Virus record (IMG/VR): IMGVR_UViG_3300020202_000065
Strand: one strand, 5' to 3'
DNA length: 64,000 bases
Source of the DNA: a virus
The number at the start of each line of letters is the position of its first letter. The stretch's first letter is position 1. A program made the position numbers and the translations under genes. Shown here piece after piece: positions 3,120 through 10,560 of the stretch. A model generated the notes under the pieces. It saw only the letters and a program-made list of their open reading frames with translations, searched no databases and was not told the origin of the DNA.

Positions 3120-3197
3120 CCGTGAACGCAGAGCACGCCGGCGGCGCCGGCGCAATGCGGCCGCCCCGGAGGGCGCCAGTTGCAAGCCTGGGAGAGC
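3111..3197 (+). ncRNA. Possible degenerate third tRNA-like element
   Basis: D-arm-like CGTG-AACGCAGAG-CACG, T-arm-like CCAG-TTGCAAGC-CTGG, only ~4 bp of acceptor pairing. Confidence 0.3.
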
Positions 3198-4087: not shown

Positions 4088-4141
4088 CTCCTATGAAAAC
4101 AGGGTGGACTAATTTTGAAAAAGGAAAGGAGGTGTAGTCCA

Positions 4142-4432
4142 GTGGCCACGCAAAAGCCTGTCTGCCGTGACGTTCAGGCCTATCTCAAATTTCATCTCGG
4201 CAAGAACTGGTCCGCGCCGCTCACCGGAACAGATTGGCGCGCCTTTGCCGCGTTCTGTCACCTGGTGGATCTCTGGTGTACGACCGAGTCACCGCACGCC
4301 GAAGAAGCCATGCGGCAAACGCTGAAGGTCTGCCAGAGTTCCGTGCTGCCGATTTTCTATCATGCCGCCGCCGGCATCACGATGGAAAGCACGGCTGAAC
4401 GGCTCTGGCCGCGCATCAAACCGAAAGAGTAA
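4142..4432 (+). CDS. Hypothetical protein
   Basis: GTG start behind AGGAGG. Confidence 0.75.
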   Translation: MATQKPVCRDVQAYLKFHLGKNWSAPLTGTDWRAFAAFCHLVDLWCTTESPHAEEAMRQTLKVCQSSVLPIFYHAAAGITMESTAERLWPRIKPKE

Positions 4433-4774: not shown

Positions 4775-4816
4775 CCCCCGCTGATTCCGCCAGAAAGCTT
4801 AAAGTTTAAACGATAC
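4773..4816 (+). promoter_or_regulatory. Phage-specific promoter-like motif, copy 1
   Basis: AACCCCCGCTG-N14-CTTAAAGT-N5-CGATAC. Confidence 0.7.
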
Positions 4817-4823
4817 GCAACCA

Positions 4824-4934
4824 ACAGCGGCCGCGTGGACAGTGACATGCAGCGCGAAGAGACGCGGATTGATGTTGCGGGAACTCTCTTATGTGGCCGT
4901 CAATCCAGCAGCCGGTGCAACTCCGGCCCGCTGT
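4824..4934 (+). ncRNA. tRNA-like RNA 1 with the anticodon region replaced by a kissing-loop domain
   Basis: 7-bp acceptor ACAGCGG/CCGCTGT, 5-bp D stem, T arm GCCGG-TGCAACT-CCGGC, then T8. Confidence 0.75.
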
Positions 4935-4942
4935 TTTTTTTC

Positions 4943-4968
4943 AACCCCGCACCGTGCGGGTTTTTTTT
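4943..4968 (+). terminator. Intrinsic terminator
   Basis: CCCGCAC-C-GTGCGGG-like stem followed by T8. Confidence 0.7.
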
Positions 4969-4992
4969 ATGCCATGACAGAAGGAGACTGCC

Positions 4993-5187
4993 ATGAACCT
5001 CAACGCAGCCGCCGCCCAGCTCATCCAGGAACTCGATTCAATCCCGGCAGCAACGTGGGGCGGCGTCTTTGTCCGCTACGACACGCCGCGGGACACCATT
5101 GCGATCGATCTGCGCAGTGTCGGTCTGGTCGAAATCTTTGAACTCTACACCAACGGCATGCGGATCCGTTGGGCCAACCCCCGCTGA
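4993..5187 (+). CDS. Hypothetical protein, 64 aa
   Basis: SD AAGGAG. Confidence 0.8.
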   Translation: MNLNAAAAQLIQELDSIPAATWGGVFVRYDTPRDTIAIDLRSVGLVEIFELYTNGMRIRWANPR

Positions 5188-5219
5188 TCCCGCCAGATTT
5201 CCTCAAGTTCCAACGATAC
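5176..5219 (+). promoter_or_regulatory. Phage-specific promoter-like motif, copy 2
   Basis: AACCCCCGCTG-N14-CCTCAAGT-N5-CGATAC. Confidence 0.7.
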
Positions 5220-5230
5220 GAAGTTTTTAG

Positions 5231-5366
5231 CGCGGCGTTCTCGTGGCTGGTGTCACGGGCGAAAAACAGAACGGACGGAGCTTGATTTCCGTTTCGCGTT
5301 TCAGTTCTCCGGTAGAGCGCGAACGCCAATAGCGAAACGCAGAGGGTTCGATTCCCCGCGCCGCAA
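5231..5366 (+). ncRNA. tRNA-like RNA 2 with an initiator-like acceptor stem and an ~80-nt insert in place of the anticodon arm
   Basis: CGCGGCG/CGCCGCA (C1-A72 mismatch), T8, D stem CTCGTG/CACGGG with loop GG, T loop GGG-TTCGATT-CCC. Confidence 0.7.
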
Positions 5367-5395
5367 AGCACTTCAAACCACGGGAGGAAACCAAC

Positions 5396-5407
5396 ATGAA
5401 GAACTGA
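5396..5407 (+). CDS. Three-codon minigene MKN*
   Basis: GGAGG SD, then ATG AAG AAC TGA. Confidence 0.45.
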   Translation: MKN

Positions 5408-5413
5408 ACACAC

Positions 5414-5553
5414 CGGTGCTCCAGCCGTCTCCCACAAAAGCTCTGGAGCACTGCGGTCTCGACGGCAAACAACCTCCGCGAGGTGAGACTGGGGATCCGG
5501 AAATGGCCGGATCGCGAATAGGAGCCAGGCCTTTAAAAACGAAGGGCTTTTTT
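5414..5553 (+). ncRNA. Pseudoknotted structured element ending in a weak terminator
   Basis: P1 5414-5424/5443-5453, P2 5454-5460/5485-5491, CCGTC/GACGG pseudoknot, hairpin 5494-5513. Confidence 0.5.
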
Positions 5554-5844
5554 ATGACTCTCGAAAAGGAACTCCGTAAAGCCACGTCCAGCATTGCTCT
5601 GCGCGTGGACAACTCACGCCAGGACACAAAGCCGGAACCGGCGCGGCCCAAGCGCAACGAACTCGAGCAGCACCTGCGCGAAGAAAATCGGAAGCTGCGC
5701 AGCGGCCAGCGCTGGTTTGCCTTCGACACCAAGCACGGCCGTGTTGCGCGCCAGGCCTATGTCCCCGTTCCGCTGGCCGGCGAAAAGCTCGTAGGCAACC
5801 GCCGCGGCTATCTCTCCGCCTCTGAAGCCATGAAGGCCAAATGA
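5554..5844 (+). CDS. Hypothetical protein
   Basis: ATGA overlap with the next gene; start uncertain. Confidence 0.65.
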   Translation: MTLEKELRKATSSIALRVDNSRQDTKPEPARPKRNELEQHLREENRKLRSGQRWFAFDTKHGRVARQAYVPVPLAGEKLVGNRRGYLSASEAMKAK

Positions 5845-10469: not shown

Positions 10470-10560
10470 GGCGGGGCAGTGGTCCCAATGCGCTCGCCTC
10501 CACGGGGCGGGACTGGACTCCGCGATTGTCGCGGATGACTGAGCAGCGCGGAAAGGAGTT

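Follow-up and report, generated by a model that had tools for sequence, protein, structure and literature searches.

TLS2 is the name given here to positions 5231-5366 of a 64,000-nucleotide (nt) stretch of viral DNA (IMG/VR record IMGVR_UViG_3300020202_000065), which was analysed over its full length and is called the window below. Judged from its sequence, TLS2 appears to be a real, non-decoding, tRNA-shaped module and one of two paralogues in an early operon. As to its function, we tentatively favour a possible role as a handle, similar to the t-elements of plant mitochondria, for RNase P, RNase Z, and the CCA-adding enzyme, which would free a stable RNA and cut the operon transcript.

The carrier of TLS2 is an uncultured soil phage. 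The window carries phage genes encoding a tape-measure protein, a C5 methylase, an integrase, and others, and its sequence was recovered from soil metagenomes only. Gene calls were those of contig L001, which is identical to the window. The two other contigs containing the TLS2 region proved identical to the window in sequence. TLS2 is located on the sense strand of a 366-nt gap between two genes (4993-5187 and 5554-5844), within a run of small plus-strand genes at the head of the window (i.e. the early operon). GC content by codon position was flat in this gap (0.58/0.57/0.52), whereas third-position values (GC3) of 0.68-0.80 were obtained for genes, which indicates that the gap is non-coding.

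Architecture of TLS2 and its paralogue TLS1

The acceptor of TLS2 comprises six Watson-Crick pairs (5232-5237 with 5359-5364), while C5231 is mismatched against A5365 (i.e. 6 of the 7 pairs are formed). The D stem begins exactly at position 10 and is 6-8 base pairs (bp) long (up to 5240-5247/5252-5259), with UGGU as tetraloop. The T loop has the canonical sequence UUCGAUU and is closed by three G-C pairs (3 of 5, with 49:65 and 50:64 mismatched), and the T arm directly abuts the 3′ strand of the acceptor, as in the canonical tRNA register. The stem is followed by A5366 in the discriminator position and then by AGC; hence, CCA is not encoded. A previous sequence-only reading had listed these features (acceptor, C-A mismatch, U8, D stem, T loop, A73, and the missing CCA), and all of them were present where it had placed them.

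Between the D and T arms, 82 nt stand in place of the anticodon and variable region. This central domain consists of an A-rich linker and three hairpins with loops of 6, 5, and 3 nt (Table 1), although alternative long-range pairing is possible between CGUUUCGC (5290-5297) and GCGAAACG (5332-5339). Neither folding nor inspection of the sequence revealed a register within 5260-5341 that would yield a 7-nt anticodon loop, and CAU was absent from this region. The earlier description of a tRNA-shaped, non-decoding RNA whose anticodon arm has been replaced is thus borne out. The tRNA-like fold is essentially the minimum free energy (MFE) structure (−50.7 compared with −51.0 kcal/mol, i.e. 0.3 apart), and the probability of the acceptor pairs was approximately 1.0 for TLS2 alone and 0.9 in a context of 283 nt. 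The T-arm motif GGTTCRANYCC occurs once in the 64-kb window, at 5345-5355, and this single occurrence lies within the TLS2 fold. TLS2 was also the sole match to the tRNA clan of Rfam in the window.

Upstream of TLS2 lies a conserved motif (AACCCCCGCTGATCCCGCCAGA...AAGTTCCAACGATACG), of which the window contains only two copies, with most positions identical in pairwise alignment. The second copy ends at position 5220, in agreement with the earlier observation that TLS2 starts about 11 nt behind it. The frame of the motif relative to the gene upstream of it differs between the copies, pointing to an element at the nucleotide level. No match to the sigma-70 consensus was found in the motif, and its interpretation as a sigma-70 promoter was rejected for this reason. 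Also dropped was an antiterminator formed by pairing between the motif and the acceptor strand, as this works for copy 1 only.

Behind copy 1 of the motif, approximately 400 nt upstream of TLS2, lies the second module, TLS1. Its acceptor is a perfect helix of 7 bp (ACAGCGG/CCGCUGU), followed by a D stem of 5 bp, a central domain of 60 nt, and a perfect 5-bp T stem with the loop UGCAACU. TLS1 is succeeded by a U8 run and then by a strong terminator (4946-4960). Both modules share the D-arm core CGTGGNNNGTGNCAYG, which is found nowhere else in the window; thus, neither the motif nor the D-arm core has a third copy there. In each module, a hairpin with a 7-nt loop abuts the 3′ strand of the acceptor. 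On both strands of the acceptor, pairs 2, 3, 5, and 6 have other bases in TLS1 than in TLS2, with pairing kept at each of them. The co-occurrence of TLS1 and TLS2 could be explained by shared ancestry, but the maintenance of pairing through such sequence turnover would not be. We also noted that the loop AAGAGA of a TLS1 hairpin (4852-4865) has an exact complement, UCUCUU, within the long arm of this module; no equivalent loop-loop match was found in TLS2.

Table 1 Positions of TLS2, its parts, and neighbouring elements in the window
Feature	Position	Strand	Basis or remark
TLS2, tRNA-shaped RNA module	5231..5366	+	Pair-by-pair check; MFE and constrained folds; Rfam tRNA-Sec, 26.3 bits
TLS2 acceptor, 5′ strand	5231-5237	+	Pair check
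TLS2 U8 and U9	5238-5239	+	Pair check
TLS2 D arm	5240-5259	+	Pair check
TLS2 central domain	5260..5341	+	Folds
Central-domain hairpin 1	5273-5294	+	8 bp, 6-nt loop CUUGAU
Central-domain hairpin 2	5296-5326	+	Folds
Central-domain mini-hairpin	5332-5340	+	Folds
TLS2 T arm	5342-5358 (paired 5344-5346/5354-5356, loop 5347-5353)	+	Pair check
TLS2 acceptor, 3′ strand	5359-5365 (discriminator A5366)	+	Pair check
TLS1, paralogous tRNA-shaped module	4824..4934	+	Pair check
Conserved upstream motif, copy 1	4775..4817	+	Pairwise alignment
Conserved upstream motif, copy 2	5178..5220	+	Overlaps stop codon of gene 4993-5187
Twister-P5 ribozyme	3127..3191	+	Rfam RF02684, 38.6 bits, above gathering score of 37.6
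GGGAGG, Shine-Dalgarno-like site	5382-5387	+	Read from sequence
Three-codon open reading frame, ATG AAG AAC TGA	5396-5407	+	8 nt after GGGAGG, between TLS2 and HDV-like fold
10-bp hairpin	5415..5452	+	Pair check and fold; ends 2 nt before predicted ribozyme cut
HDV-like self-cleaving ribozyme candidate	5455..5527	+	RF00094, 26.5 bits; descriptor; pairs verified
Second, weaker HDV-like fold	10481..10546	+	Descriptor match; RF02682, 17.7 bits, E = 0.37
Terminator-like hairpin and U run	5527..5553	+	Terminator scan; abuts ATG (5554) of next gene

A possible processing handle among ribozyme motifs

What the analysis shows is the sequence of TLS2, its fold, its paralogy with TLS1, and the ribozyme motifs nearby; its transcription, its cleavage by tRNA enzymes, and any role of the released RNA are inferred. 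TLS2 keeps the half of a tRNA that is read by processing enzymes, namely a coaxial stack of acceptor and T arm and an elbow formed by the GG of the D loop and the T loop UUCGAUU. It would be transcribed with, or inside, the plus-strand operon. Host RNase P would then cut at the 5′ edge (~5230/5231), and the 3′ edge near 5366 would be completed by a 3′ nuclease (RNase Z or exonucleases) together with the CCA-adding enzyme. As a result, a stable RNA of about 135 nt would be released and the polycistronic mRNA severed at this junction. At other junctions of the operon, the same job would be done by the twister ribozyme (3127-3191) and by a fold resembling the hepatitis delta virus (HDV) ribozyme, with its predicted cut at 5454/5455.

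Counted in favour of such a handle were the exact tRNA register of the helices and loops, the tRNA-like fold as MFE structure with its high acceptor probability, the unique tRNA-clan match and T-arm motif, the paralogue TLS1 with its differing yet paired acceptor, the non-coding gap, the known action of RNase P on phage RNAs other than tRNAs and of t-elements at mRNA ends, and the ribozyme motifs at other junctions of the operon. A terminator scan detected no terminator ahead of either copy of the upstream motif; hence, read-through RNA from the upstream genes would include both modules, and freeing TLS2 from it would need an endonucleolytic cut.

By its sequence, the operon is rich in RNA-processing motifs. 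The Twister-P5 ribozyme, which exceeded the Rfam gathering score (Table 1), exactly fills the 84-nt gap between two early genes of 51 amino acids (aa) each. The HDV-like candidate downstream of TLS2, for which cleavage is predicted between C5454 and G5455, appears to be a well-formed fold with all core elements present. Its P1 comprises 6 bp and opens with G5455-U5490, P3 has 3 bp with the L3 sequence UCCGCGA, P1.1 is formed by C5476/C5477 with G5492/G5491, P4 has 7 bp, and J4/2 reads GCGAAUA and has C5515 at the position of the catalytic C in RF00094. P2 is weak, with only 3 bp (5464-5466/5524-5526). The score of 26.5 bits against RF00094 (E = 0.082 in 501 nt) did not reach the gathering score of 50; this covariance model leaves the P1.1 and P2 pseudoknots unscored. 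A generic HDV descriptor matched at 5455 and at one other intergenic site (10481), compared with 0.135 matches per shuffled window. The fold at the latter site is located in the gap after the matrixin gene and has an A where the catalytic C would be expected; it may be inactive or a false positive.

Further elements were found around the HDV-like candidate. The 10-bp hairpin ahead of the predicted cut would give the upstream RNA a protected 3′ end. The GGGAGG site and the three-codon open reading frame (ORF) between TLS2 and the HDV-like fold recall a minigene or a start-stop leader. The terminator-like hairpin at 5527-5553 encloses the likely Shine-Dalgarno site (GAAGGG) of gene 5554-5844 and could gate translation rather than terminate transcription.

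If TLS2 is indeed processed in this manner, soil phages would reuse the tRNA shape as a general module for RNA processing and stability in protein-coding operons. The main cases of such reuse described so far are organelles (t-elements) and a few long non-coding RNAs of eukaryotes. Moreover, one and the same phage operon would be punctuated by a tRNA shape and two classes of self-cleaving ribozymes, and TLS2 would join a growing set of phage tRNA mimics missed by gene finders and Rfam. From its sequence, TLS2 can be regarded as a single-lineage, well-defined candidate of the 'tRNA-like structure' kind and as a direct target for a simple bench test. A more far-reaching proposal, which we consider improbable, is that the modules represent a new class of small RNAs in phages, with a tRNA as chassis. 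In such RNAs, the processing half would recruit RNase P and the CCA-adding enzyme, a distal 3′ end would be produced by an HDV-like ribozyme, and either the central domain or, in TLS2, the initiator-like end would serve as decoy or regulator directed at a host translation or defence factor.

Chance, mimicry, decay, and decoding as less likely explanations

Several observations weigh against a processing handle. For TLS2 itself, the three-pair T stem and the two mismatches at the acceptor/T junction may make it a poorer target for RNase P and RNase Z, and CCA is not encoded. Should the upstream motif be a promoter, with transcription starting near 5229, the 5′ end would require little processing. 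The predicted cut of the HDV-like candidate lies 89 nt past the 3′ end of TLS2, compared with at most 5 nt for theta ribozymes. As for TLS1, its tRNA-like fold lies 1.2 kcal/mol above the MFE, which corresponds to a different fold, its acceptor probability is only 0.2-0.4, and position 55 in its T loop is a G. Comparative evidence for pairing is confined to this one pair of paralogues, i.e. two sequences, and no homologue of the TLS2 region was found in the searched collections (see below). Finally, the folding z-score of TLS2 was −0.75, so that its stability is not above that of shuffled sequences, and its best Rfam match, the selenocysteine tRNA (tRNA-Sec, RF01852), extended over the entire model but reached 26.3 bits, far below the gathering score of 47. 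This match had an E-value of 0.0049 in 501 nt and of 0.63 for the whole window, and its alignment requires insertions of 28 and 34 nt. Loose tRNA-like shapes are equally common by chance: two shape descriptors gave 9 and 3 matches in the window, compared with 6.8 and 1.9, respectively, in dinucleotide shuffles.

The shape of TLS2 by itself is therefore not beyond chance. ARAGORN at default settings, with or without introns, reported no gene, as the sequence-only reading had expected for TLS2, and relaxed settings produced 149 calls across the window, which amount to noise and are uninformative. It is the context that raises TLS2 above chance, namely its position on the sense strand of a non-coding gap, the unique tRNA-clan match and T-arm motif, and the existence of a second module. 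When the search was anchored to the upstream motif, the chance of finding even the least stringent descriptor common to both modules no more than 15 nt behind each of the two copies was approximately 0.004.

These figures bear directly on the possibility that the resemblance to tRNA is a coincidence and that the early operon has here a structured leader or attenuator of an ordinary kind, whose T-loop-like hairpin and closing helix look like a tRNA by chance. In addition to the shuffles, the Rfam E-value, and the folding z-score, this view is consistent with the T arm of TLS1 having also been scored as a weak terminator, with the terminators detected by the scan in several other gaps of the operon, and with the occurrence of the T-loop/acceptor 21-mer of TLS2 within coding sequence (FDSPRR) of two unrelated high-GC metagenome-assembled genomes (MAGs). 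We nevertheless regard it as rather unlikely. Two modules of the same layout stand behind the same motif, the helix boundaries are in exact tRNA register in both, the GG of the D tetraloop faces a canonical UUCGAUU loop, and the acceptor end matches that of a real tRNA-Met over 23 nt.

The latter tRNA, a tRNA-Met(CAU) with C1-A72 in a Clostridia MAG (locus L125), is identical to TLS2 in its last 23 nt and in the 5′ sequence CGCGGC, while the similarity of the middle parts was no better than in shuffled controls. Located at 4093-4168 on the minus strand of L125, it has an A7-C66 mismatch besides C1-A72, and its anticodon stem is without the initiator G-C triplet. With regard to initiator tRNA-fMet, the mimicry proposed in the sequence-only reading held at the acceptor end, where C1-A72, G2-C71, C3-G70, G4-C69, G5-C68, and A73 are common to both RNAs provided that C5231 and A5365 are counted in the stem, but not beyond it: instead of A11-U24, TLS2 has U5241-G5258 at pair 11:24, and the G-C triplet of the anticodon stem is missing, as is CAU.

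Given this end, TLS2 might act as a decoy, i.e. as a CCA-added RNA that mimics the initiator acceptor and titrates a host factor that reads acceptor stems, be it formyltransferase, IF2, or a toxin or defence effector (toxSAS, GNAT, or MenT type), so that translation would be protected or re-programmed during infection. The determinants listed above stand in canonical register, the 3′ 23 nt are those of a natural C1-A72 tRNA, and proteins reading only the acceptor stem and CCA do not need the anticodon half. Acceptor-reading toxins exist, and some of them are antiphage effectors (bioRxiv 10.1101/2024.07.05.602228; PMC10435456; PMC9071432). The initiator-like acceptor end would offer a testable link to the acceptor-reading toxins of antiphage defence. 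A decoy seems unlikely to us, however, since (i) the mismatch exists only if the mature RNA includes C5231 and A5365 in the stem, whereas with G5232 as position +1 the stem would be an ordinary one and A5365 the discriminator; (ii) pair 6:67 of TLS2 is flipped relative to tRNA-fMet; (iii) CCA is not encoded; (iv) the acceptor of TLS1 is quite different (A1-U72), so that mimicking the initiator does not characterise the family; and (v) most known tRNA-targeting defences cut anticodon loops, of which TLS2 has none.

The combination of tRNA-like ends with a non-tRNA middle could also have arisen by decay. TLS2 would then be a functionless pseudogene derived from a phage gene for an initiator-like tRNA-Met or for a tRNA of the Sec/allo type, with the anticodon region destroyed by insertions. 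In line with this, its T stem is short of two pairs compared with the natural tRNA having the same 3′ end (GAGGG versus CGGGG), and allo-tRNA genes, which occur in soil bacteria and phages, are often disrupted (PMC5389517). Neutral decay, however, would not leave full terminal helices in both paralogues despite their wholesale divergence, the upstream motif is highly conserved, and the central domain is itself well folded within a structure that equals the MFE; a pseudogene is thus a doubtful explanation. An attP remnant was rejected as well, given that TLS2 has both strands of its acceptor and that a distance of 27 kb separates it from the integrase.

It is very improbable that TLS2 is a working tRNA that decodes and merely contains an intron or enlarged arms. 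The end-to-end Rfam alignment with tRNA-Sec would fit such a tRNA, and the gene upstream of TLS2 stops at UGA, after which its frame is open to 5844. However, a 7-nt anticodon loop is absent throughout 5260-5341, a bacterial group I intron would be longer than the insert of about 59 nt, and the intron setting of ARAGORN retrieved nothing at its defaults. Coding read-through of the gap was likewise rejected, because codon-position GC shows no coding signal in the read-through frame, and the long ORFs of the window read normally with table 11. As an observation in its own right, the frame of the upstream gene is free of stop codons in two plus-strand gaps (4775-4996 and 5188-5844). The first open gap closes in ATGA overlapping the next start codon, and the second continues in frame into the next gene. 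Both gaps of this double coincidence have flat codon-position GC and hence a non-coding look.

Relatives of the locus were sought in viral, metagenome, and genome collections and in protein libraries of 5.8 and 1.8 billion. The exact T-arm/acceptor 21-mer had no match in viral contigs, gapped scans with the full upstream motif gave none in genome and viral contigs, and blastn of 5100-5600 against cultured phages returned no match. In metagenome contigs, a scan with half of the motif yielded at least 120 chance matches, and among the matches listed none had the second motif half. The flanking proteins had no relatives in viral contigs, and word-index searches with the neighbouring proteins of 64, 96, and 662 aa recovered only the proteins themselves or partial domain matches. 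HMMER detected one distant homologue of 143 aa for the 64-aa protein; its locus (L126), an unrelated and tightly packed element, contains no tRNA-like element. This 64-aa protein, encoded between the two modules by gene 4993-5187, is without close relatives, and HMMER matched it to a domain repeated up to nine times in giant proteins of 1700-2082 aa (P0013, P0014, and P0016).

Comparison with known tRNA-like RNAs

Two of the RNA types suggested in the sequence-only reading could be discarded. TLS2 resembles transfer-messenger RNA (tmRNA) in having an acceptor/T-arm mimic without anticodon arm and a short ORF close by. Yet the tmRNA mode of ARAGORN found none even at 80% thresholds, no tmRNA model of Rfam matched at E ≤ 10, pair 3:70 is C-G and not the G-U of tmRNA, and the mini-ORF has its own Shine-Dalgarno site and AUG outside the acceptor closure. 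With YrlA-type Y RNAs, TLS2 shares a tRNA-like module inside a non-coding RNA, but RF02553 was not matched in 5100-5600 even at E ≤ 10. The ends of YrlA RNA form the Ro-binding stem, at the side of the anticodon stem, whereas those of TLS2 form the acceptor. No Ro60/TROVE domain was present in the 29 ORFs scanned, which are part of the ORFs of the window.

The scaffold of tRNA-Sec and allo-tRNAs probably fits TLS2 at least as well as that of initiator tRNA. Common features are the long D stem (about 6 bp) with tetraloop, the short T stem (3-4 bp), and a long extra arm, and this type of scaffold accounts for tRNA-Sec being the best Rfam model. Allo-tRNAs from soil bacteria and phages have a long D stem and an acceptor branch of 12 bp (8/5, 8/4, or 9/3; PMC5389517). 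In TLS2, the acceptor branch has 12 layers, comprising six Watson-Crick pairs, the U5238-G5358 wobble, three T-stem pairs, and the mismatches C5231-A5365 and U5239-C5357. TLS2 differs from these tRNAs in lacking an extended anticodon stem with a 7-nt loop (UCA for Sec), and its Rfam score is well below the gathering score. Further differences from tRNA-Sec are the A-rich linker of 12-13 nt after the D arm and some 15 nt (linker and third hairpin) before the T arm.

In this phage of Caudoviricetes type, a tRNA-shaped gene is followed on the same strand by an HDV-like fold, which recalls the theta and minimal HDV-like ribozymes next to phage tRNAs. Theta ribozymes cut within 5 nt of the 3′ end of phage tRNAs (Kienbeck et al. 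2024, PMC10879173). The cut predicted here would instead occur behind a mini-ORF and a hairpin, the candidate has a full P4 rather than being minimal, and the phage stems from soil and not from the gut. Judging by these sequence features, the layout is not the theta-ribozyme arrangement.

Stable RNAs that do not decode are familiar from other phages; T4, for instance, encodes the 'species 1 and 2' RNAs beside its tRNAs. RNase P cuts non-tRNA phage RNAs (M3 RNA and the C4 antisense RNA of P1/P7) as well as mRNAs (PMC11143913). TLS2 would likewise be small, non-decoding, and matured by the host, with its processing being a proposal; to these substrates it has no sequence relation and no detailed structural one.

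The closest parallel to the proposed handle is provided by the t-elements of plant mitochondria, tRNA-like cis signals that direct RNase P and RNase Z to the ends of mRNAs, which were found by means of the GGTTCRANYCC motif (PMC1920247). Both they and TLS2 have a non-canonical cloverleaf, a T arm with this motif, and an acceptor-like closing helix; both lie on the sense strand between genes and do not decode. For both, the proposed function is to define RNA ends, with a small stable RNA as by-product. The two belong to different domains of life and have no sequence relation. In place of a degenerate anticodon arm, TLS2 carries a structured domain of 82 nt, and the enzymes acting on it would be a bacterial RNase P with its RNA together with RNase Z or exonucleases.

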